A stretch of 64,000 bases of DNA from an uncultured Alphaproteobacteria bacterium (GCA_902826095.1 CADEDN010000004.1:1-64000), one strand, 5' to 3'; positions 9,075 through 59,517 are shown, counted from the first letter of the stretch. The notes: generated from the sequence alone by a model not told the origin. Made by a program: numbers and translations.

Positions 9075-9149
9075 GCCTCAGTAGCTCAGCGGTAGAGCAG
9101 CCGGCGTAAAGCCGGCAGGCGGTCGGTTCGACTCCGATCTGGGACACCA
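9075..9149 (+). tRNA. atypical tRNA-like gene (class I cloverleaf, anticodon loop CGUAAAG: anticodon UAA but G33; C2:A71 mismatch; encoded CCA) - possible pseudo-tRNA
   Basis: GCCUCAG/UA/GCUC-AGCGGUA-GAGC/A/GCCGG-CGUAAAG-CCGGC/AGGCG/GUCGG-UUCGACU-CCGAU/CUGGGAC/A/CCA hand-folded. Confidence 0.45.
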
Positions 9150-9221
9150 CTGGATAGCTCAGTAGGGTAGAGCAGGAGACTGTTAATCTCTCGGTCGGGG
9201 GTTCGACTCCCCCTCCAAATT
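9148..9221 (+). tRNA. tRNA-Asn(GUU) with defective acceptor 5' strand (overlaps CCA of upstream tRNA-like gene)
   Basis: canonical D arm UAGCUCAGUAGGGUAGAGC, anticodon loop CUGUUAA, T arm GGGGG-UUCGACU-CCCCC; but 5' strand CACUGGA pairs only 4/7 with 3' strand UCCAAAU. Confidence 0.5.
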
Positions 9222-29688: not shown

Positions 29689-29812
29689 TCCCCTCTCCCG
29701 CTTGCGGGGTCGGACCATGTGTCCGACGGGCTGGGGGTGAGGGGGCGTCAACGAAGGGAATCCCCCGTTCAGACGCCCCCTCACCCTGCCCTCTCCCGCA
29801 AGCGGGAGAGGG
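29689..29812. repeat. REP family B composite palindrome (CCCTCTCCCGCNNGCGGGAGAGGG arms + GGGGGTGAGGGGGCGTCAA...GACGCCCCCTCACCC)
   Basis: same unit at 43512-43992 (x3 tandem), 44441-44666 and 50946-51073. Confidence 0.75.
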
Positions 29813-43511: not shown

Positions 43512-43992
43512 CCCCCCTCTCCCGCTCGCGGGAGAGGGGCCGGGGGTGAGGGGGCGTCAAAGGAGAGCGCCGCCCATGTTCGACGCCCCCTCACCCTACC
43601 CTCTCCCGCAAGCGGGAGAGGGTGGCGCGTCTCATGCGCCTCACGACAACTGAAATTTCCGGTTCTGCAGCGAGATCGCGCCGCTACCTCCCCTCTCCCG
43701 CTCGCGGGAGAGGGGCCGGGGGTGAGGGGGCGTCAAAGGAGAGATCCGTCCCTGTCTCACGCCCCCTCACCCTGCCGTCGGACGCATGGTCCGACCCCGC
43801 AAGCGGGAGAGGGTGGCGCGTCTCATGCGCCTCACGACAACTGAAATTTCCGGTTCTGCAGCGAGATCGCGCCGCTACATCCCCTCTCCCGCAAAGCGGG
43901 AGAGGGGCCCGGGGTGAGGGGGCGTCAAAGGAGAGCCCTGTCCATGTTCGACGCCCCCTCACCCTGCCCTCTCCCGCAAGCGGGAGAGGGGG
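43512..43992. repeat. tandem array (3 units of ~180 bp) of REP family B composite palindromes
   Basis: units at 43512, 43690, 43870 with identical inter-palindrome segments (not CRISPR). Confidence 0.8.
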
Positions 43993-44088
43993 GCGCACTA
44001 AATGCGATCGCCCTGCGCTAGCGGAAGAGGGGGGGGCGGCGGCGGATTTGGTCTTGTCGACCGCAAATCCGGCAGACAATCTTGACAT

Positions 44089-44427
44089 ATGCGAGACGAC
44101 CAAAAAACCAAGCTTGCGCGCCGCCTTCGTCGCGATGCGAATGCGCCGGAACGCGCCGCGTGGGCCGCACTGCGCATGCTGCGCGAGCGCGGTTTCGCCG
44201 TGCGGCGCCAGCATCCGGTTGGTCCCTATGTCGTCGACTTCGCCATTGTCGCGCGCAAACTCGTGATTGAAATCGACGGCGGCGTTCATCGCCTCAAGGC
44301 TGCGGACGACGCGCTGCGGCAATCGCATCTTGAGGGCCTTGGCTGGCGCGTCGTTCGCGTCAAACCGGAGGTCGCGCTGAGCCGGGATCATTTGCTTGAT
44401 CTTATCGAGAGAGTGCTCGGGAATTGA
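44089..44427 (+). CDS. DUF559 endonuclease-domain protein (Vsr/restriction-endonuclease-like fold)
   Basis: ERGFAVRRQHPVGPYVVDFAIVARKLVIEIDGGVHR...GWRVVRV conserved DUF559 core; embedded between REP arrays. Confidence 0.75.
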   Translation: MRDDQKTKLARRLRRDANAPERAAWAALRMLRERGFAVRRQHPVGPYVVDFAIVARKLVIEIDGGVHRLKAADDALRQSHLEGLGWRVVRVKPEVALSRDHLLDLIERVLGN

Positions 44428-44440
44428 AGCGCCCTCTCTT

Positions 44441-44666
44441 CCCCCTCTCGCGCTTGCGGGGTCGGACCATGCGTCCGACGGGCCGGGGGTGAGGGGGCGT
44501 CAAAGGAGAGCGCCGCTCATGTTCGACGCCCCCTCACCCTGCCCTCTCCCGCAAGCGGGAGAGGGTGGCTCGTTTGGCGCACGCAATAAACTTCGAAGAT
44601 TTGGATTGCGCGGTGAGATCGCAGAAGAAGGGCGCCTTCCCCCCTCTCCCGCAAGCGGGAGAGGGT
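44441..44666. repeat. REP family B copies
   Basis: CCCTCTCGCGCTTGCGGGGTCGGACCATGCGTCCGAC...GGGGGTGAGGGGGCGTCAAAGGAGAG...CCCTCTCCCGCAAGCGGGAGAGGG. Confidence 0.75.
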
Positions 44667-49949: not shown

Positions 49950-50260
49950 GCGAGATCGCGCTCCCGCATCGCCGGGGCGGCCGATTCCGGCCCCTGCAGC
50001 GGCGCCGATAATGTCCGGTAACGGAAGAATTTGAGGATCGCGATCGTCGAGGCGAAGTTCAACAGCGCATAAAGCAGCGCGATGTCGAGAAAATCCGGCC
50101 GCCCGGTCAAAAAGCCCATGAGGCCGATCAAAATCACCGTCTTGGTGCCGAAGGAATTGCCGGCGAGGACGCGGTCATAAAGCGTCGGCCCGGCGAAAGC
50201 GCGCACCAGCGCCAGCAGCATGGCGACGAGGATCGCGCCGGTCGCGACGGCGATCATCAT
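49946..50260 (-). CDS. Mrp/Mnh antiporter subunit F
   Basis: 104 aa, 3 TM, MrpF pattern. Confidence 0.7.
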   Translation of the reverse strand: MMIAVATGAILVAMLLALVRAFAGPTLYDRVLAGNSFGTKTVILIGLMGFLTGRPDFLDIALLYALLNFASTIAILKFFRYRTLSAPLQGPESAAPAMRERDLA

Positions 50261-50742
50261 CCGCCCCTCCCCTCGATCGCCGCGACGCGCCGGCCCATGT
50301 CGTTGATCGCCGCCTCATCGGCGAGCGCCTCGGTCAGGGCGTGAACGACCATGTGACCCGGCTCAAGATCGACCGTCACCGTGCCGGGCGTCAAGGTGAT
50401 CGAATTGGCGAAGGTCGCAAGACCGGCCTTCGTTTTCGTCGGCGAGACGATCCTGAGAAGCTTTGGCGACAGTTTCGGTTCGACCGCGAGCGCCTGGCGC
50501 GCGACGATGAAATTCGCCTTGCCGATCTCGGCGAACAGCCACCACCAATAAAGGAAGACGCGCGGCATCATGCCGGTCGGCGCGCCTTCCGCATCAAGAA
50601 CGCGGGCGCGGACCGCCAGCGCGACGCACAAGGCGACGGACATGACGCCAAAGCCGAGCAGCAGCGGCTTGTCGAAATAGCCCGAGAGCAATAGCCACAA
50701 AACCGTGAGCGAAACGGTCAGGATGATCGCTCTTCCCAGCAA
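50257..50742 (-). CDS. Mrp/Mnh antiporter subunit E
   Basis: 161 aa, N-terminal 2 TM then soluble domain, MnhE pattern (ANSITLTPGTVTVD). Confidence 0.7.
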   Translation of the reverse strand: MLGRAIILTVSLTVLWLLLSGYFDKPLLLGFGVMSVALCVALAVRARVLDAEGAPTGMMPRVFLYWWWLFAEIGKANFIVARQALAVEPKLSPKLLRIVSPTKTKAGLATFANSITLTPGTVTVDLEPGHMVVHALTEALADEAAINDMGRRVAAIEGRGG

Positions 50743-50836
50743 GTCTTATAGCTCCCGTTCCGACGCGGGCGCGCCCTCGGGATCGACCATTAGGAGTTTT
50801 CAGAGAAAATCAAGCCCTTGGAAAGCGCCCCCTGCC

Positions 50837-50878
50837 TTCACCCCCCTTGGAAAGGGGGTTTGGGGGGATTGGCGCCGC
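50837..50878. repeat. REP family A (TTCACCCCCCTTGGAAAGGGGG + GGGGGGATTGGCGCCG)
   Basis: inverted counterpart at 11120-11213. Confidence 0.7.
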
Positions 50879-50945
50879 GAGGGACCGATCGTCCGTATAA
50901 AAACCAATCTCCGCGGCCTCGCCATTTCCGGCCGGGGCGCTACTT

Positions 50946-51073
50946 CCCCCCTCTCCCGCTTGCGGGAGAGGGGTCGGGGGTGAGGGGGCGTCAACGCAGA
51001 GGTCCGCCCATGTCTCACCTCCCCTCACCCTGCCGTCGGACGCATGGTCCGACCCCGCAAGCGGGAGAGGGTT
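50946..51073. repeat. REP family B copy
   Basis: CCCCTCTCCCGCTTGCGGGAGAGGGGTCGGGGGTGAGGGGGCGTCAACG...GTCGGACGCATGGTCCGAC...CGCAAGCGGGAGAGGG. Confidence 0.75.
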
Positions 51074-51102
51074 CGCACCATAGGGGCGGGAACAAGGACG
51101 GC

Positions 51103-51492
51103 TCAGGCCTCGCCCGGCTTTTTCATCGCGGCGGCGAGGCAGGAGCAGCCGCCGAGGGAGAGGACGCCTCTTGCGTCGAGATATTCCTCGATCGCTTCGG
51201 CGATGAGATCGTCGGCGCTCATGTCGGCTTCGGCGGCGCCGAGCGCGAGGCGCATGAATTCGCGCGCCGACAAATGCACGGTGACGCCGGCCTTGACCTC
51301 TTTTGTCTGCGGCGCCGGCGCGGGCGCGGCGACCGGCGGCGCCGGCGCGGCGTCCCTCACCCGCCGCGCGATCGCACCAGAGACAGCGCACGACGCCCGA
51401 AAGCGACGCGCGCGGAGGACGAATGGAATCACAACTCGGCCGTGACATCTTAGGAAAATACTGCGGGAACGCAAATCATGGAACAATTTCAA
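51103..51492 (-). pseudogene. chimeric ORF: insertion-derived N-terminus fused to orphan duplicate of RHH C-terminal domain
   Basis: C-terminal 77 aa identical to the end of 53969-54883 protein; N-terminal 50 aa encoded by low-GC inserted DNA. Confidence 0.4.
51106..51357. repeat. ~250-bp direct repeat (copy L) duplicating the 3' end of the RHH/ParG-like gene; left boundary of 2.6-kb low-GC insertion
   Basis: near-identical (1-2 mismatches) to 53964-54215. Confidence 0.85.
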
Positions 51493-51610
51493 TGCTTCGC
51501 CCCATCAGGATCCGCGGAGGCCATTGCGAAGGGCGTCGACACTGAAATTAACCGCAATCAATCATAAGCTGGTCCGAGCGTTTAACGGCTCAAGGAATTG
51601 AGGTACTGCA

Positions 51611-53794
51611 CTATTCTTCGGCAAGCTGCACTCGATCAAACTCAGCGACCCTGACTATGTCCTGAAGTTTCCGTTTCATTTCGTCCGTCAATAGGCGGGC
51701 AGCACCACAAGAGTTCTCACCCAGCATCCTGCGTGCAAATTCTTCGCGTGCGATAAATGGCGATGGCTGATCTGGATGACCTTCATCATCCATCATCGGC
51801 GTAAGCGCCTCTAATAAGATCTTCTCAACGATATCGGAATCGGACTCCATGCAGGCAGAGCGCGCGACGACCGTCAATCGCTGAGGCAGGATGCCGCCCG
51901 CAACATCCTCAAATTCAATTGCAGGAGACCACTCTGCCGTGTATCCCAAGTCAAAATCTTCATTACTCAGGCAACCTTCGAGCGATTTTGGATCGGTCGC
52001 GGCTCTTAACCGAGCGCCCCGCTCAGTTGAGATGAAACCATCTTTGACTACTTGTGCGAATTTGCCCAATGTGTTTTCGATTTCCGACACTTCGAGTGGT
52101 GCGCAGCCGAATTTTGCGCGGAAAAGCATTGCGGAATCTGTGGTCTTTGGGTGTCCCTCTGCCCGTCGAAGATCCACTCCATTGAGATCCGCCGCGGCCA
52201 GATCAGCATCCAATAGACTGACTCCGATTAGACTTGCATTGGCCAACTTTGTTCCTTGGAGAATGGCGTCCTTTAGATCGGCGCCAACCAACACAGTGTT
52301 GGTGAGCGACGCCCAGCTCAGGTCTGTGCCGTGAAGATTTGCCCCCAGCATGCTCGCGCCGTCCAACAAGGCGTGCTTCAACTTTGCGCGGGTCAGTTCT
52401 GCGCCCGACAAATCGGCACGACTGAGGATGCTCATTTGCACCTCGGCATCCATCAAGCTCGCTGACCTCAATTCGGCATCTACGAGAATTGCGCCATGGA
52501 GGTCTGCCCGATCGAGTATGGCTTTATTCAATATTGCGCCTTTCATGTCAGCTTGTTGAAGTCTTGCCGATGTCAAGTTGGCAGCGCTGAGAGATACGCT
52601 CTCCATTAATGCACCCTCCAAATCAGCACCAATCAAGTCTGCTCCTTGAAGAAATGCGCCGGTCAAGTCAATTCCACGAAGAGATGCGTTCCGAAGAAAC
52701 GCACCTTCCAGGCGGCGCTTGCGCAACGATAATCTTGATAGTTTCGGAGCACCATCGCCCTGCGCCGCATGCTCGGCAAAATCATAATAGGGCAACATTA
52801 TTGAGTCACTGAACGGGCTTGCAGGCCGCCGCGAGATGTCATCGAAAGATTGATCGAATAATTTCTCTCGCACTCGAGCAACAAATGGCAGTTCGCGAAC
52901 GCGCGCAAAAATAGTTTCCTCGTCAAAGGCGACCAAGATCCATGACGTTGCGAGCAGGAGCGCGCTAAGCAACGCAATCAAGATGTACTTTGTGATAGAT
53001 TTCAGTGTACGTCGGGCGGGAGCCATAATTGAGCGGCGCTCCGGTCTTACCCAAATTATAGAGAGAAGAAGCACGTCGAATGCGATGAGGGCGCGAATCC
53101 ACCAGAGAGTTGCCTCCCCGTGATAAGGAAGGAATTGCACTTGCGTCAGCAGCAATCCGAACATGGGTAAGATCGCCAATGTCACGAATCCTATCAGTCG
53201 GAGCACGTAGGCGAAAAACCCCGTCCGATTCCAAGTCGGTCCTGCGAGCATTTGCGCAAATACAAAGTTTGAAATTTGGAGACGCGTCTCGTTTTGACGA
53301 TCAACCGAAATCTCGTGATCCGCCAAGAAGCGATTCAGCTGGGCCGCATTGTCAGCCAGCAACCAGATGTGCAGCAGGGAGTAGCTATGCAGCAAAAACA
53401 GGAGCAGTGGCGCAACCCAGAAATAGGGCACCAGCGGCAATTCGGCGTCAATAATCGGCAATCTGAATGGTGTTTCGAGTAGCAGTTGTGTGTGCGTCAC
53501 TGTCCCCATTGAGATTAGATAGTAAGTCGCAAATGAAATGAACGACAACCAAATGCCCTGTGTCTTTGCTGCCGCATCATTCAGTGCTGCCATTGCGTCT
53601 TGCAGGCGCCTAGTTTGCGTCCCAGTTAGATTGGGACCAAACACTAAACTGGCTGCGGTGCCTCCAGAGTCAGCGCCACCATGATTTTGCTCTACAGAGG
53701 GAGCCGTGACGCTCGGCCCGCCAGAGGCGCTTTTTGCCGCGCATTGAAGCGCATTTCGTCGAAGCGCCATTGCGATATCGAACTGAGTGACCAC
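51611..53794 (-). CDS. membrane-anchored pentapeptide-repeat protein (N-terminal ~300-aa polytopic domain, ~230-aa pentapeptide-repeat solenoid, ~180-aa C-terminal domain)
   Basis: tandem A(D/N)LxxAxL pentapeptides (LRGIDLTGAFLQGADLIGADLEGALMESVSLSAANLTSARLQQADMKGAIL...); ~50% GC versus ~67% flanks. Confidence 0.75.
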   Translation of the reverse strand: MVTQFDIAMALRRNALQCAAKSASGGPSVTAPSVEQNHGGADSGGTAASLVFGPNLTGTQTRRLQDAMAALNDAAAKTQGIWLSFISFATYYLISMGTVTHTQLLLETPFRLPIIDAELPLVPYFWVAPLLLFLLHSYSLLHIWLLADNAAQLNRFLADHEISVDRQNETRLQISNFVFAQMLAGPTWNRTGFFAYVLRLIGFVTLAILPMFGLLLTQVQFLPYHGEATLWWIRALIAFDVLLLSIIWVRPERRSIMAPARRTLKSITKYILIALLSALLLATSWILVAFDEETIFARVRELPFVARVREKLFDQSFDDISRRPASPFSDSIMLPYYDFAEHAAQGDGAPKLSRLSLRKRRLEGAFLRNASLRGIDLTGAFLQGADLIGADLEGALMESVSLSAANLTSARLQQADMKGAILNKAILDRADLHGAILVDAELRSASLMDAEVQMSILSRADLSGAELTRAKLKHALLDGASMLGANLHGTDLSWASLTNTVLVGADLKDAILQGTKLANASLIGVSLLDADLAAADLNGVDLRRAEGHPKTTDSAMLFRAKFGCAPLEVSEIENTLGKFAQVVKDGFISTERGARLRAATDPKSLEGCLSNEDFDLGYTAEWSPAIEFEDVAGGILPQRLTVVARSACMESDSDIVEKILLEALTPMMDDEGHPDQPSPFIAREEFARRMLGENSCGAARLLTDEMKRKLQDIVRVAEFDRVQLAEE

Positions 53795-53963
53795 TCAGAC
53801 ATTACCGCACAGACCGCATTTACATGCAATTTAGCGCAGTCAGATTTTCCGGTACCAGATTCGAAGGAAGCCACACGTCATTGGCGAATAATCGCCTTAC
53901 CCTTCGGCAGGTTGCTGCGTAAGTGCTTTGGAGCTCGGCTTTCGCCAGGGTGCGCTGCGGGAT

Positions 53964-54215
53964 GAAAACTACGCCTCGCCCGGCTTTTTCGTCGCGGCGG
54001 CGAGGCAGGAGCAGCCGCCGAGGGAGAGGACGCCTCTTGCGTCGAGATATTCCTCGATCGCTTCGGCGATGAGATCGTCGGCGCTCATGTCGGCTTCGGC
54101 GGCGCCGAGCGCGAGGCGCATGAATTCGCGCGCCGACAAATGCACGGTGACGCCGGCCTTGACCTCTTTTGTCTGCGGCGCCGGCGCGGGCGCGGCCGCC
54201 GGCGGCGCCGGCGCG
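53964..54215. repeat. ~250-bp direct repeat (copy R), within 3' end of intact RHH/ParG-like gene
   Basis: matches 51106-51357. Confidence 0.85.
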
Positions 54216-54883
54216 TCGTCATCAAGCGCGTCCGGCGGATCGTCATCATCCTCTAAACTGTCGAGAACGTCGTCCTCTTCCCGCCGGTCGCCGTAGAAGG
54301 CGCTTTTTTCCTGCGCGATCGTCTCGGTGTCGCCGAATTTCTCGAAATAGGAGAGAACTTCGTCGGCTTCGGCTTCGAGCGCGGCGATTTCCTCCGGCGA
54401 CGGATTATCGGGATAGCCGGCGTCGAGGCTGCGCTCGTTGATGACGGTCATCGGCCGCGGCGGCGCCGTAGCGGCGGCGGGGGCGGCTTTCGCCGCGGGC
54501 GCGGGCGCGGCTTTGGCCGCCGGCTGCGCCTTGACGTCGGGAACGCTCGGCGATTTCGAGGCGGCGGGCGCGCTGGCGGGCGGAACAGCAGGCGCCGGCG
54601 CCTTCGCTTTTGGATCGCGCGCCGGCTCTTTCGCGGACTCTTTCGCCGGCTCCTTCGCCGGGGGCCTCGCCGCGGTTTTCAGATCGAGCGGCGGCGCTTT
54701 TGATTTGGGCTTGCCTTTGGGCTCAAGATTGAAGGCGTCGGTCTCTTCGGCCGGATCGACGATCGGCGCGTTCGACGGCGCGGCCTGTCCCTTGCGGGCG
54801 AGCAGGCCCGATGTCAGGGCGGCGAAGCGGGCTTCAAGCTTCCCCTCGCCTTCGCGCGCGCCGTTCTTTTTCATGCCGAGCAT
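53969..54883 (-). CDS. ribbon-helix-helix (ParG/CopG-like) DNA-binding protein with long Pro/Ala/Lys-rich N-terminal region; partner of ParA-like ATPase
   Basis: C-terminal VTVHLSAREFMRLALGAAEADMSADDLIAEAIEEYL RHH motif; immediately downstream of parA-like gene. Confidence 0.55.
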   Translation of the reverse strand: MLGMKKNGAREGEGKLEARFAALTSGLLARKGQAAPSNAPIVDPAEETDAFNLEPKGKPKSKAPPLDLKTAARPPAKEPAKESAKEPARDPKAKAPAPAVPPASAPAASKSPSVPDVKAQPAAKAAPAPAAKAAPAAATAPPRPMTVINERSLDAGYPDNPSPEEIAALEAEADEVLSYFEKFGDTETIAQEKSAFYGDRREEDDVLDSLEDDDDPPDALDDDAPAPPAAAPAPAPQTKEVKAGVTVHLSAREFMRLALGAAEADMSADDLIAEAIEEYLDARGVLSLGGCSCLAAATKKPGEA

Positions 54884-54916: not shown

Positions 54917-55636
54917 CTATTGGGCGGCTCTGCGGCCGAAAACGCGGTTTTGCGCCGCGACCGCGGCGGCCGCCTGCTCTTCGGGCGACCTTATGCCGCC
55001 CTCCGCGCGTTTGAGGCGCCGGTCGAGATATTGCCAGAGCTCGGAAATTTCCTGCGCGGATTTGCAATAGGGATCGATCTCCATCACCGTCCGTCCGTCA
55101 ATCATCGAGGCGGCGTAGTCGACGCGGTGATGGATGACGGTCGGCGAGACGGTCCCGTGCTGGGAGAGCGCGATCGCCGCTTCCGAGGTGATGCGCGCCT
55201 TGGGCGTCGCGCCGTTGACGACAAAGACGAGCTGTTTGCCGCGCGCCTGCGCGATGTCGACGGTCGGTCCGACGGCGCGAAGATCATGCGGCGAGGGCCG
55301 CGTCGGCGCGACCACGAGATCGGCGAAATTGACGACCTCCGAGATCGCCCGCGTCACCGCCGGCGGCGTGTCGATGACGACCAGGCGAAAGCCTTCGTCG
55401 CGCGCGCGATCAAGGTCCTGAAAGAGATTTGAAAACACCGACTGGATGAAGGCGGGGTTTGGATCCTCGCGGACGTTCCACCATTTCGCCAGCGATCCTT
55501 GCGGATCGGTGTCTATGAGCGCGACGGGGCCCGCCCCGGCTCGCCCTGCTTCGACGGCAATGTGGCCCGAGAGCGTTGTTTTGCCCGAGCCCCCCTTTTG
55601 CGACGCGAAGACTATTACGCGCATCGACGCCAGCAT
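54917..55636 (-). CDS. ParA/MinD-family P-loop ATPase
   Basis: deviant Walker A VFASQKGGSGKTT; start likely at MLASMRVIVF (ORF opens at 55693). Confidence 0.85.
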   Translation of the reverse strand: MLASMRVIVFASQKGGSGKTTLSGHIAVEAGRAGAGPVALIDTDPQGSLAKWWNVREDPNPAFIQSVFSNLFQDLDRARDEGFRLVVIDTPPAVTRAISEVVNFADLVVAPTRPSPHDLRAVGPTVDIAQARGKQLVFVVNGATPKARITSEAAIALSQHGTVSPTVIHHRVDYAASMIDGRTVMEIDPYCKSAQEISELWQYLDRRLKRAEGGIRSPEEQAAAAVAAQNRVFGRRAAQ

Positions 55637-56253
55637 GCGTCCTCCCGGAATCTTTTCCCTGGGCGTGTCGCCCCGGCCGCCATCTTCGCGCATGAGGCGT
55701 TAAAGCCGCGCGCAGAACGCGCTTCGAATTGTCTGAAAACCTTAACCATAAAGTGAGGGTTGGCGGACGGCGCGAAGACCGCGCGAAAAAAAAGAGCGCC
55801 GGAAGCAGCCTAGATACGCAAGGCCGCGACCGACGCGACGCGAGCTATGACAGAGATGTTTTAAATCGCGCTTAATTGCAGGCGCGTCATCAAGCGCCGC
55901 GCGCGGGCGGATGGATGTGACGGCGAATGCGGATTTTGCGGCCGGCCGCAGGGACGGCGATGTCTCATTTTGAATGGACGCGATCCGCCGATTGGTCGCG
56001 GCCCTGAAGGGCCGCTCGGGGGCGACGCTGACGATCGTTGTCGAAGAGTAGACGGGTTGGGATTTGGCCCGAAGCCGACGCAGACGACGCGCGCGGCGAA
56101 CGGCTGGTTGATCCGCAAGGCGGACTCTTACGCACACGATCGCGCGACTTAGCAGACATCAGATAAGGAGGCGCCGGGAGAAGAATCCCGCGTCACGATC
56201 CCGCCGGCCCACTCCGGTTAGGACGAAAAAGAAATTCGTACAGCAATCGCACC

Positions 56254-56898
56254 CTATGCGGCGTACTGCTTTTGGTAGACCTTATTCTCGAGCAGCGATC
56301 GAAAGTGCTGCATCAGCCCAAGGATTTCGGCGATTAAATCGTCTACGCCCGTTTCTTGGATGAATTCGTTCTGGCCGTGCGCAATGGCATTCCTACGCTT
56401 AAGAATGAATTGGTCGAGGAACACGCGCTTGGTTTCAAAATGCAAAGAATCGACTGAGCAGATAAGGCAGATTTCCCTGATGATGTCCGTATTGAGGTTA
56501 GACTTTGTGTCGATCAGTGATGGGTTTACGTATTTGAACGTGCCGGTCATTCCATCGAGAATGTCGTTGACTAGTTTGCATCGCGCTTCCAGGTTCGCAC
56601 GACTCTGATGTAGCGCATCGATCCTGGCGAGGAACGTGTTCACGTAAATTTGCCGCTCAAGGTTCGCGTAGGTTCGGCGCCGGATTGTGAGGTATTCGAA
56701 ATATCGGTTCGCGCAGTTGCGAACATAGCCCTCCCAATGCGCATAGCTCATCGTCACTATGGCGCGGAGCAAAACAGGCTTCGCAGCGGCGTCTGCCGCC
56801 TTCACCGCGGCCTTCAAATCGGAAAGCTCTTTGCGGCGCCAGATAAGGTCCTGGTCAAAAAGGTCCGAGAGGTCTTGGTCTGTATAGGGTTTGCTCAC
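56254..56898 (-). CDS. HEPN-like predicted nuclease (MAE_28990/MAE_18760-type), downstream partner of DUF262 gene
   Basis: all-helical 214-aa protein with C-terminal RRNAIAHG (Rx4H HEPN motif); 4-bp overlap with upstream gene; low-GC islet. Confidence 0.65.
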   Translation of the reverse strand: MSKPYTDQDLSDLFDQDLIWRRKELSDLKAAVKAADAAAKPVLLRAIVTMSYAHWEGYVRNCANRYFEYLTIRRRTYANLERQIYVNTFLARIDALHQSRANLEARCKLVNDILDGMTGTFKYVNPSLIDTKSNLNTDIIREICLICSVDSLHFETKRVFLDQFILKRRNAIAHGQNEFIQETGVDDLIAEILGLMQHFRSLLENKVYQKQYAA

Positions 56899-58007
56899 TG
56901 CGCGAACCAGTTAGTGCCGAACGGAATCGTCCGTTGGATGCGGACGGTCCCACGAAGACCGGCTACAAAGAAGGTATCGATATCGGGCGACTGCCAGAAC
57001 TGGGCGATGCGGTGTTGGACGTATTGCGTCGGATCGGGCTTGGCCTGGATGGCAGGAAGATTCCGCGCGATGCCGATCGCGATGCATTCATAGGCCGCGA
57101 GGAGCACACGTCCAGTTGGCTGCCCATTGTTGAAGCGACGAAGCGCGTTTTCGCCGTACGCCGCGTGGAGGAGGTCAAAAGTGCCGTTAAAAGTCTCGGC
57201 GACCTGCTGAGTCACACCAGCCGATGCTAGCTCGACGATACTCTTGTCGATGAACTCCTCTACGTCCAGCTTGTTGTCGTAATCTATGTATTTGTGGACG
57301 AGGTAACGCGACACGTATTCCATGTCGCGCTGCTTTTCGAGCTGGTCCTCGCTCGCCGAAAGAACGAAACGGTAGGATTGCCTCTGCGAGAGCACGCGCA
57401 TCATCTGGTGGTACGCGGGGTTCACCATGATAACGATGACATTTCGAAGCTCTTGTGCGTTGGCCAAAGTACCGCCTGCATTTAGGCGCTGGAACAAGTC
57501 GTACTTGGTTTCATTTGAACTTGGCCGCTTCAGAATTTCGACGCTTATCCTGCTCCGCCGGATGGCGAGCTGAAATGGTCCTGTGAACGGCTGTTGTTCA
57601 TCCAATGGGACACCCGGAATATCGTTCGATGCCTCCCATACCGCCTTGTCTAGTGACGGCAGATACTTAGTGGCAACGAGCGCGGTCGGCGGCTCGAGCT
57701 GGTTGGATTCCGAATTACGCAAGACACCAACGAATTCGAGGAGAGTTGAGACACGCTGAAGCCCGTCTATGAGCTCCCATCTCGAGTTCTCCTTCTCGAA
57801 AACGAAGATGGGCGGAACCGGAATACCCAGAAGGATGGATTCAATGAGCTTCGACTTCTGCCCAATCTCCCAGCGGAAGAGCCGCTGGAAATCAGGATTG
57901 ATGATGAGTTCGTTATCCTTGTACATGTTGATCAGCTCACCGACGGACATCTGATATGCGTCGGTCTTCACAAGCCGCGTGGCGATCTCAATCTCATTCT
58001 CCAGCAT
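56895..58007 (-). CDS. DUF262 domain protein (ParB/sulfiredoxin-fold, GmrS-like N-terminal NTPase/nuclease domain)
   Basis: INPDFQRLFRWE and ELIDGLQRVSTL (DGQQR-type) signature motifs; 370 aa; ~50% GC. Confidence 0.8.
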   Translation of the reverse strand: MLENEIEIATRLVKTDAYQMSVGELINMYKDNELIINPDFQRLFRWEIGQKSKLIESILLGIPVPPIFVFEKENSRWELIDGLQRVSTLLEFVGVLRNSESNQLEPPTALVATKYLPSLDKAVWEASNDIPGVPLDEQQPFTGPFQLAIRRSRISVEILKRPSSNETKYDLFQRLNAGGTLANAQELRNVIVIMVNPAYHQMMRVLSQRQSYRFVLSASEDQLEKQRDMEYVSRYLVHKYIDYDNKLDVEEFIDKSIVELASAGVTQQVAETFNGTFDLLHAAYGENALRRFNNGQPTGRVLLAAYECIAIGIARNLPAIQAKPDPTQYVQHRIAQFWQSPDIDTFFVAGLRGTVRIQRTIPFGTNWFAQ

Positions 58008-58335
58008 GTGAGAGCTCCGAATTTGCAGGGGCAGATTAGCCGGGTGCAGCGGATAGCGCGACCGCGAAAGTAACGTGTCAAATCTGTATTAGGTCGTGCC
58101 CTCGCTGGATCCGTCCAAACTTATTCCGTCTTGCTTCCGATCACACGAGGGTAGCATAGTCCGCTTCTGCCCCCAATCCGGTCATTCCCGCGATCAGGTT
58201 CGCGCGTCCGCGCTCGGCGATTTGCAGCAAGGGCGTCGCCGCATGGCGCGCGGCAGGAGGTTCCGGATAATCGCTTTCGGCGATTTCCGGGATGACAGGT
58301 GATGAGCCTTCATCAGCGCAAATCGGGACGAGCCC

Positions 58336-59517
58336 TTACGCGACGTCGTCCTCGTCGAATCCTAGGAGGCGGGTGATGCGCGCTATTCGCGGATTGCCGT
58401 CCCAGTCCCAATAGCGAAGGACGGCTCTCGCGTAATCGCGCGCCATTGAATCGAAGACGCCGAGGATTTTCTCCGCGCGTTCCGGCGAGAGCGGATTTTC
58501 CGCGTCCTTGCGCGAGACGATCTGGAAGAATTCGGCGCGCGGCAGGCCGAGGCTCTTGGCCATAACGGCGAAGGGCTCGACGCCCGGATCGCGCAGGATG
58601 CGCGCGACAAGTTCGCGGCTGACGCCGGCGATCATGGCGCAGGCGTGGATGATCTCTTGCGCCGGATATTTGCGCGCCGCGGCCAGCGTCTTGATGACGA
58701 CGTCCATCGTGACCGGCTCGCCGTTGACGCCGCGCGGGCGGTGGCGGCGGTCGAGCATGATGAGGATTTCCTTGACGAGCGGATCGGCGCCCTCGCCGCG
58801 GAAGACGCGCGCGTAAAGCTCCTGCACGCTGTCTTGCACGATCGTGCGGTCGAGCGCGAAGCGCGCGAGGATGCGCTTGCGGCTTTCAACGTCGACCCAC
58901 CAGAACATCATGAAGCCATGCGCGGGCTCAAGCTCGCGCCGGCGCAGCAACAGCGCCTGCGTCTCCGTATCGGCGGTCGAACGGCTGACGAGCAGATCGA
59001 TGGCGGACGGCGAGAACTGGAACTCCTCGCGGCGGAGCAGCAGCTTCGTCACTTCCGGTTCGTTGAATTCAAGAACGACGTCGGCGAGCGAGGCCGTGAG
59101 GTCGAGGCGGCGGGCGATCATCTCGCGATGCGCGGTCGTGCCGGTGCGCGCGCACTCGATCAGCAGCGCTTCGGGGAGCGGCTCGACGCGGCGGATCACC
59201 GGCTCGGCGACGCGCGGCTCGTCAAGCAGCAGCATGCGCAGCAGCGAGTTCGGGGCCTCGGCGACGCGCGCGATGCGGCGCGACACCTCAAGGCGAAGGT
59301 CTTCCTCGACCTTGTCGAGCGCCTGCAGCATGATGTCGGCGACCAGCGAGCGCTGGTTGGCGGTGAGACGCGCCGGCGGCAGGACGACGATGTCGGAGAG
59401 TTTCCGGACCAGCACCTCGCGCGGGGTGTGGCCGCGCGTCGAGGGCGGCGTCAGGCCGACATCGCTTTGCGGCGCGACATCCTCTTCTTCCATTGCCGGA
59501 TCTTGCGTCGACATCAA
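58336..59517 (-). CDS. DUF2336-like hypothetical protein
   Basis: 393 aa helical repeat protein common in alphaproteobacteria. Confidence 0.5.
   Translation of the reverse strand: MMSTQDPAMEEEDVAPQSDVGLTPPSTRGHTPREVLVRKLSDIVVLPPARLTANQRSLVADIMLQALDKVEEDLRLEVSRRIARVAEAPNSLLRMLLLDEPRVAEPVIRRVEPLPEALLIECARTGTTAHREMIARRLDLTASLADVVLEFNEPEVTKLLLRREEFQFSPSAIDLLVSRSTADTETQALLLRRRELEPAHGFMMFWWVDVESRKRILARFALDRTIVQDSVQELYARVFRGEGADPLVKEILIMLDRRHRPRGVNGEPVTMDVVIKTLAAARKYPAQEIIHACAMIAGVSRELVARILRDPGVEPFAVMAKSLGLPRAEFFQIVSRKDAENPLSPERAEKILGVFDSMARDYARAVLRYWDWDGNPRIARITRLLGFDEDDVA

Follow-up and report, generated by a model that had tools for sequence, protein, structure and literature searches.

A duplicated gene end around a low-GC gene beside a chromosomal ParA locus in an uncultured alphaproteobacterium: a probable recombination scar between two versions of one locus

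In a 64,000-nucleotide stretch of DNA from an uncultured Alphaproteobacteria bacterium represented solely by metagenome assemblies (GCA_902826095.1 CADEDN010000004.1:1-64000, hereafter the window), the 3' end of a gene that follows a ParA-family ATPase gene is found twice, and the two copies bracket a block of low guanine-plus-cytosine (GC) content with a pentapeptide-repeat gene inside it. How did this block come to lie between two copies of a gene end, with the gene itself left intact? A preliminary description, made from the sequence alone, proposed a Campbell-type integration of a circular foreign molecule or, failing that, an integrase-less site-specific event. We find that the structure is probably, at somewhat better than an even chance, a recombination scar that joins two versions of one variable chromosomal locus, and that the repeat would be a by-product of that recombination. 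All genes of the region lie on the minus strand, and in the direction of transcription their order is DUF2336, a low-GC islet, ParA, the partner gene, the pentapeptide gene, the left copy of the repeat, and mrpE. The features on which the argument depends, in that same direction, are the following.

54917-55693, minus strand: ParA-family ATPase gene, a conserved chromosomal gene (NCBIfam ParA_partition, E 6e-48, below the curated cutoff)
53969-54883, minus strand: intact ParA-partner gene, an open reading frame (ORF) of 304 amino acids (aa), annotated as 301 aa from 54874
53973-54220, minus strand: right copy of the 248-bp repeat, supplying about the last 82 codons of the intact ParA-partner gene
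53795-53968, minus strand: spacer Y, 174 bp from the partner-gene stop to the cargo gene, GC 0.52, with no homologue in related loci
51611-53794, minus strand: cargo gene, encoding a pentapeptide-repeat protein of 727 aa (annotated as 719 aa), Pfam Pentapeptide E 2e-41, GC 0.53
51355-51610, minus strand: spacer X, 256 bp from the cargo gene to the left repeat copy
51449-51610, minus strand: spacer X1, from the cargo gene to the AraC start, GC 0.49
51347-51448, minus strand: 5' fragment of an AraC-family (DUF6597 + HTH_18) gene, 34 codons, MSRPSCDSIRPPRASLSGVVRCLWCDRAAGEGRR, with its ATG at 51448
51346-51354, minus strand: place where AraC codon 33-34 meets partner-gene codon about 222, the sole novel joint in the unit
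51107-51354, minus strand: left copy of the 248-bp repeat, an orphan 3' end of the ParA-partner gene, followed by its own GCC TGA, repetitive extragenic palindromic (REP) elements and mrpE
50743-51102, minus strand: native downstream context of the left copy, comprising about 280 bp of REP-like palindromes (about 50830-51090) and the mrp-operon upstream element (about 50743-50830)
50257-50742, minus strand: mrpE (MNHE), with which the conserved Na+/H+ antiporter operon begins; relatives have this operon after the locus

A self-repeat search covering the 10-kb region from 48 to 58 kb of the window, followed by base-by-base comparison, found one 248-nt direct-repeat family whose two copies are spaced 2866 bp apart and are 98.4% identical. 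The runner-up direct repeat in this region spans 39 nt, at 66-95% identity, and chance is therefore ruled out as the source of the longer one. The direct repeat that the preliminary description saw at the 3' end of the gene after ParA is thus real, and the intact gene does use the right copy, its annotated product being the 301-aa protein P0214. Several details needed revision. The right copy had been placed about 9 nt off, at 53964-54215, and one or two mismatches had been reported where four are counted, at 51125, 51331, 51332 and 51350. The duplicated portion, given as the last 77 or so codons plus the stop, is indeed the 3' end, but comprises 82 codons plus 2 nt and ends one base short of the stop codon. 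A perfect run of 205 bp forms a core common to both copies. The final codon and stop read GCC TGA in the left copy and GCG TAG in the right, and both encode an identical terminus (...KKPGEA), and two internal differences alter amino acids (M/T and V/A). The leftover differences lie near both ends of the repeat (P about 0.02 for such spacing).

The far end of the block is more informative than the repeat itself. By sequence comparison, the left 100 bp of the DNA between the repeats (51448 to 51347), in the GC-rich part of spacer X, is identified as the 5' end of the native AraC/DUF6597 gene of this locus. The stub matches the start of the AraC gene in the related locus L041 by blastn (79% over 72 nt, E 2e-11) and residues 2-32 of protein P0216 by blastp (68% over 31 aa); in a codon alignment its differences are mainly at third positions. 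The rest of the AraC gene and the DUF6265 gene have left no remnant that we could find within the window. The chimeric ORF at 51103-51492 noted in the preliminary description is present, the public annotation preferring an 85-aa ORF from the GTG at 51360 (P0215), yet the supposedly insertion-derived sequence fused to the left copy is this AraC stub and is derived from the locus. Of the 2.6 kb taken there to be foreign, the low-GC gene is indeed absent from about 40 related loci, whereas the left 100 bp is native.

The 2866-bp unit is thus made up of the partner-gene 3' end, spacer Y, the pentapeptide gene, a low-GC spacer and AraC codons 1-34. At its one novel joint, the AraC side reads GACGCCGCG and the partner gene GACGACGCG, a GC-rich microhomology of 8 matches in 9 positions (GACG[C/A]CGCG). 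Split into codons, the two sequences are GGA CGC CGC G (AraC) and TGA CGA CGC G (partner gene). The perfect CGCG of the microhomology lies at 51346-51349, and only 51107-51349 of the left copy is clearly derived from the partner gene; the apparent repeat mismatch at 51350 is an AraC base. A joint of this kind is an illegitimate microhomology and not an att-like core, which speaks against the integrase-less site-specific event that had been offered as the second possibility.

For comparison we used about 40 related loci, numbered with the prefix L. Among about 24 metagenome-assembled genomes of Parvularculaceae the identity of ParA is 85-94%, and it exceeds 90% over about 20 species of this family; in Amphiplicatus it is 82%. 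The ParA-partner gene pair is syntenic in most related loci having downstream DNA. Neither the pentapeptide gene nor a second copy of the partner-gene 3' end is present in any of the about 40. The empty site on which an insertion model turns exists in many related species, where mrpE follows the partner gene after about 190-260 bp (187-259 bp in L001, L007, L012, L014, L015 and L019). Other genes occupy the site after the partner gene in L006, L009, L022, L024, L031 and L046. The closest relatives by partner-gene identity are L041 (77%), L043, L044 and L045 (71%) and L047 (71%), and in the four closest lineages an AraC-family gene (DUF6597 + HTH_18, 274 aa) and a DUF6265 gene come directly after the partner gene. 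The left copy in the window, by comparison, stands in the context of the empty loci: after its stop come REP elements and then the conserved element upstream of the mrp operon, which contains ..GGGCTTGATTTTCTC.. and is found shortly past the partner-gene stop in L001, L007, L012 and L015.

Two of the closest loci illustrate how the spacer after the partner gene can vary. At the cargo site between the partner gene and AraC, L041 carries a different lone large gene (709 aa, HemolysinCabind, GC 0.63; L041:8894-11270), around which we found no flanking duplication, and L047 (2042-2109) is its cargo-free counterpart. Identity between the two loci is 88% as far as the partner-gene stop, the ParA end included, and rises to 98.4% over AraC and DUF6265, starting 15 nt ahead of the AraC ATG. 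This jump in identity across the spacer marks the spacer, therefore, as a recurrent recombination boundary. REP-like palindromes follow DUF6265 in L041.

The reading that we favour brings these architectures together. Version D, modelled on the closest relatives, would have had ParA, the partner gene, the low-GC pentapeptide cargo, AraC, DUF6265 and the mrp operon; version E, as seen in many related species, would have had ParA, the partner gene, a short spacer (here with REP elements) and mrpE. A single illegitimate joint would have linked AraC codon 33-34 to partner-gene codon about 222 at the 8/9 GC-rich microhomology, and the opposite side would have been settled by ordinary homologous recombination. 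The product would be the observed order of partner gene, cargo, AraC 5' stub, second partner-gene 3' end, REP elements and mrpE. Two routes could lead to it. A linear fragment from a sister strain may have entered by homology-facilitated illegitimate recombination, with one end anchored in the mrp operon or in ParA and the partner gene and the other joined at the microhomology. Alternatively, a 2866-bp fragment may have closed into a circle at the joint between AraC and the partner gene and integrated by a single (Campbell) crossover in the partner-gene 3' end. We suspect a D-type resident chromosome because the four nearest lineages are of the AraC type; an mrp-anchored E-type fragment would then have replaced the AraC 3' part and DUF6265.

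The repeat copies themselves bear on this proposal. A wobble base and a stop codon of its own in each copy would be natural for two alleles whose homology stops where the variable region starts; were the breakpoint random, a synonymous wobble base with a stop behind it would be expected about 5% of the time (an immediate in-frame stop having a probability of 3/64). If the alleles were initially more different, later gene conversion of the core may have made them alike, and the clustering of the copy differences near the ends fits such conversion. The Campbell integration of the preliminary description survives in part: the product has the topology expected of a single crossover and contains one novel joint, as required, but the linear-fragment route gives the same sequence. 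Nothing points to an origin from a plasmid or phage.

Several points weigh against the splice of two versions. Protein searches and two degenerate DNA scans of JGI metagenomes found no same-species genome or contig with an intact D-type or E-type locus. It is for this reason that both parental alleles are modelled on relatives; together with the direction of transfer and the enzymology, they are what we infer and not what we observe. When the L041 AraC protein served as query for a same-species AraC or parental allele, the nearest hits belonged to the L041 and L043 lineages, and exact look-up of constructed empty-site hybrids of the partner protein found only the 301-aa product and the 85-aa ORF. 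An identity scan along mrpE-mrpG gave no clear recombination breakpoint. The stop-codon argument amounts to merely about 20:1, and the two routes yield identical sequence and are inseparable here. Finally, the AraC stub is short, at 34 codons, though it is supported independently by DNA, protein and position.

The rival that comes closest dispenses with the second allele, and we regard it as unlikely. It starts from a D-type chromosome and would make the structure in place, either by tandem duplication of the 2866-bp unit through unequal sister exchange at the AraC/partner-gene microhomology, followed by deletion of the second cargo, AraC and DUF6265, or by one replication template switch in which a copy of the partner-gene 3' end replaces the AraC 3' part and DUF6265. 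The AraC type of the four closest lineages makes a D-type resident probable, sister-strand slippage or template switching is equally suited to a microhomology joint, the REP cluster could have pre-existed, given the palindromes after DUF6265 in L041, and the two copies are 98.4% identical. What counts against it is chiefly the second illegitimate breakpoint, which must hit the last codon and give a synonymous wobble base and an immediate stop, an outcome of about 5% and far less than that if breakpoints are uniform over the several kilobases deleted. That second joint has no demonstrable microhomology, the ancestral sequence being inaccessible. More steps are needed, and the copy differences cluster at the ends instead of spreading like new mutations (P about 0.02). 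A small integrase-less element mobilised by an integrase in trans, in the manner of cis-mobilisable elements, and carrying a surrogate 3' end at its attachment region, is a highly improbable origin. Direct repeats that duplicate the 3' end of a target gene and keep that gene intact are the classic signature of integrating islands, and prophage e14 in icd and the islands in tRNA genes carry such surrogate ends; the window shows the same arrangement, with low-GC cargo at an intergenic site that holds different cargo in different lineages. The absence of an integrase or transposase reported earlier holds: a Pfam and NCBIfam scan of the block and of ten neighbouring ORFs (51.1-63.7 kb) detected none, the mrp-like genes on the left having been identified by homology only. 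The native AraC stub at the end of the block has no place in an autonomous element, the joint of the block is a microhomology of 4-9 nt with no sign of shared core and arm sites, and about 115 bp separate the end of the low-GC DNA from the left repeat. Searches turned up no related element, plasmid and phage databases gave no hits, the cargo homologues are at most 38% identical, and no such repeat is seen in any of the about 40 related loci. The site-specific island was rejected on the AraC stub and the lack of a recombinase.

There is also the question of whether the repeat belongs to the assembly and not to the genome. The window is part of a 209-kb NCBI contig, and the deposited contig carries the integrated form. 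Logan contigs, which are short-read assemblies made run by run at k=31, are independent of it. One of these, L036, is present in four samples and matches window 54021-51301 at 100%; it covers the insert from end to end and reaches into both repeat copies, beyond copy-specific variants, so that both inner junctions exist in real reads. On the ParA side, contigs L033 and L034 match the window at 100% and end at 54167, exactly 30 nt past the variant at 54197, where a k=31 graph would be expected to break on reaching a repeat. A pure assembly artefact, the outcome that the preliminary description named as fatal to its proposal, is rejected on the strength of these independent contigs over both inner junctions. 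Contigs built at k=31 are too short to bridge the 205-bp core, and taken alone they look alike for an integrated form and for an empty site plus a free 2866-bp circle. The chromosome might then have an empty site, with the 2866-bp unit present as a separate circle or in a co-existing strain and threaded in through the repeat: the perfect core is longer than k=31, so the 5' part of the partner gene is not tied to a particular 3' flank. We give this very little credence. The AraC-repeat and repeat-Y joints are each found at 100% in a contig seen in four runs, which places the non-canonical joint in real molecules; a 4-9-nt microhomology could not produce a de Bruijn mis-join; the integrated form is in the deposited 209-kb contig; and the same illegitimate event would still be required for a circle.

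Joints of homology-facilitated illegitimate recombination are typically GC-rich. The process, described for Acinetobacter baylyi, Streptococcus pneumoniae and Pseudomonas stutzeri, combines a one-sided anchor, which we infer here from the locus architecture, with one microhomology joint, and it inserts non-homologous DNA with possible loss of resident DNA, here perhaps the AraC 3' part and DUF6265. The joints span 3-10 bp according to the summary of de Vries & Wackernagel 2002, Prudhomme 2002 and Meier & Wackernagel 2003 given in PMC6382021, and the joint in the window, with its perfect 4-nt core and 8/9 match, falls within the range stated there. Unlike those cases, the present one comes from a natural genome and not from an experiment, and its joint made a 248-bp duplication, because the heterologous tail itself would have held a stretch homologous to the recipient. 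Campbell insertion-duplication, as with suicide plasmids and the related case of transformation-generated merodiploids (PMC3784515), likewise gives direct repeats that bracket an insert, a rebuilt target gene and an insert that can loop out; the block in the window differs in having no plasmid backbone or replicon, and any circle would have come from a sister chromosome, as a piece of 2866 bp. Integrase islands such as e14 in icd and cis-mobilisable elements share with it the duplicated target 3' end, the orphan fragment at the far end and the low-GC cargo, whereas the window block has neither integrase nor att core and has a native gene stub inside. On our reading the locus adds one more example to a known process; it does not represent a new type of mobile element.

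The cargo has limits of its own. Low GC between the repeats was correctly described: the pentapeptide gene stands at 0.53 and its spacers at 0.49-0.52 against 0.65 for the window, and the 727-aa protein is the only real gene there. The low-GC DNA runs from the partner-gene stop to about 20 nt before the AraC ATG (ending about 51470), and by eye the last 20 or so nt of spacer X1 resemble the native AraC upstream region of relatives. The encoded protein has hydrophobic segments in its N-terminal part, as judged by eye, then a region of pentapeptide repeats, and it is extended at the C terminus; its nearest homologues are merely 34-38% identical, and it was not on record in an exact-protein look-up. 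Plasmid and phage BLAST searches of the 2.6-kb segment, the search that might have supported an origin from such a replicon, returned no match. An 8-bp direct repeat lies at the two cargo edges.

53955-53962, no strand assigned: CTGCGGGA, copy 1, at the cargo edge nearest the partner gene (a shared 8-mer arises in 0.8% of shuffles)
51461-51468, no strand assigned: CTGCGGGA, copy 2, at the AraC-proximal edge of the low-GC cargo

Judging from its position, this repeat may be a target-site duplication of the cargo, in which case AraC and the partner gene would ancestrally have been 26 nt apart. A transposon or insertion-sequence reading of the cargo meets with no terminal inverted repeats in a repeat search of its ends (4 nt match by eye) and no transposase domain in the block or the scanned neighbours. 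Because the cargo has its own narrower limits, and because L041 has a different cargo and L047 none, the acquisition of the cargo and the making of the 248-bp duplication were most likely separate events.

The gene whose end was duplicated belongs to a family with three conserved modules: an N-terminal one with a ...ALTSGLLARKGQAAPSN... motif (the conserved N-terminal motif of the partner in the window being LLARKG); a central motif, ...INERSxEAGYPDNPSPEEIAALEAEADEV...; and a C-terminal domain, ...AGVTVxLxAREFMRLxLGAAE...LIAEAIEEYLDARG...GGCSCL, that is ribbon-helix-helix (RHH)-like and has a CSCL motif at its tail. The partner protein has no sequence match in Pfam, NCBIfam, PADLOC or a PDB profile search. 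AlphaFold predicts its C-terminal domain (residues about 241-290) with a local confidence score (pLDDT) of 74-90, as an extended VTVHLS segment leading into two helices (251-263 and 268-282), and all seven Foldseek hits in the PDB are RHH proteins (ORF56, PutA, Arc, NikA, AtaR twice and FitA), but at E values of 0.7-8.5. On the predicted fold it is plausible that this is an RHH domain. The RHH/ParG-like label of the preliminary description thus finds weak support in fold for its first half, and for its second only in the position next to ParA. As in ParA/ParG (type Ib) pairs, the partner gene lies immediately downstream of a ParA-family ATPase gene, and the protein has a predicted strand-helix-helix C-terminal domain, structural neighbours that are solely RHH, and an N-terminal basic motif. 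ParG has about 76 aa. Unlike such small proteins (about 70-100 aa), the partner in the window has 301-304 aa in three modules, and it is encoded by a conserved Parvularculaceae chromosomal gene beside a DUF2336/SpbR-like gene. The two remaining features of note around it are these.

58336-59517, minus strand: DUF2336 gene, SpbR-like by NCBIfam (E 3e-12)
51103-51360, minus strand: orphan 85-aa ORF (P0215) with a GTG start, comprising linker, RHH-like domain and tail only

Whether the orphan ORF is kept for a function is a question about retention and not about origin. A useful stand-alone RHH protein of 85 aa, small like ParG or CopG, could bind the DNA sites of the full-length partner; we think this improbable. 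The complete conserved C-terminal domain, with the pLDDT range and the uniformly RHH Foldseek hits given above, has been duplicated, the GTG-start ORF is called in the public annotation, its reading frame and exact C-terminus are intact, and the 205-bp core is identical, as gene conversion would keep it. Recent origin alone, however, accounts for the intactness. A promoter and terminator scan stayed at background level and gave no convincing ribosome-binding site or promoter for the ORF, with a weak terminator-like hairpin upstream of it at 51461-51474; both internal differences are nonsynonymous and too few for a selection test, and the second copy is in no other genome. In the 90%-identity protein cluster that holds P0214, the 85-aa P0215 is the representative, and this is why the full-length partner is not its own best hit in the homologue search.

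DUF2336, ParA and the roughly 300-aa RHH-like partner form a chromosomal trio that is conserved across Parvularculaceae, in which the partner family is without database annotation; the trio may be an uncharacterised ParA-based positioning system. Between DUF2336 and ParA lies a second low-GC islet (GC 0.54, window 55880-58330) with two minus-strand genes, at 56254-56898 and 56895-58007, that overlap by 4 nt and encode a GmrSD_N/DUF262 protein (PADLOC NsnA, E 2e-51) and a HEPN RiboL-PSP/MAE_28990 protein. By its gene content the islet looks like a two-gene defence module. It is missing from almost all related loci, where the gap between DUF2336 and ParA is about 200-380 bp (larger in L024), and no flanking repeats were found around it. 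Elsewhere in the window, Rfam gives two adjacent tRNA matches within 9075-9217 (9075-9146 and 9151-9217), where ARAGORN gives one tRNA-Leu(TAA) at 9075-9149.

The noncoding DNA of the window has two further features. A REP-like perfect palindrome, CCCTCTCCCGCNNGCGGGAGAGGG, occurs in 8 intergenic copies against 0 expected (29789-29812, six within 43515-44665, and 50949-50972), and it sits in elements of 100-135 nt that are repeated at 43.5-44.7 kb, at 29.7 kb and a short way downstream of the left copy. Short-read contigs also break at these elements, as L037 does at 50972. Two intergenic elements are kept across many species: a stretch of about 185 nt upstream of ParA (window 55694-55876), which contains ...GCGGCCTTGCGTATCTAGGCTGCTTCCGGCG followed by a T-run, and the motif GGG(G/C)TTGATTTTC upstream of mrpE (50743-50830). 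Both are probably regulatory; the region, including these two elements, has no Rfam match.

The locus offers a natural case in which the placing of a foreign gene can be read from the sequence, through parental architectures, an illegitimate joint and its microhomology, without mobile-element machinery and in an uncultured alphaproteobacterium. It also illustrates that long direct repeats duplicating the 3' end of a gene are not by themselves evidence for an element that integrates. Thanks to the repeat the ParA-partner gene remains whole, and RecA recombination between the 248-bp copies can delete the pentapeptide gene, with precise restoration of an E-type locus, or amplify it, a possible source of differences between strains. 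We hold it quite improbable that the 2866-bp unit works as an integrase-free homology cassette, which would loop out by RecA, re-enter sister strains by Campbell integration and supply an 85-aa RHH-only product that modulates the chromosomal ParA system; were it so, the site after the partner gene would be a cargo-exchange hotspot run by homologous recombination alone. In Parvularculaceae more widely, the spacer after the ParA-partner gene is a recurrent boundary of variable DNA.

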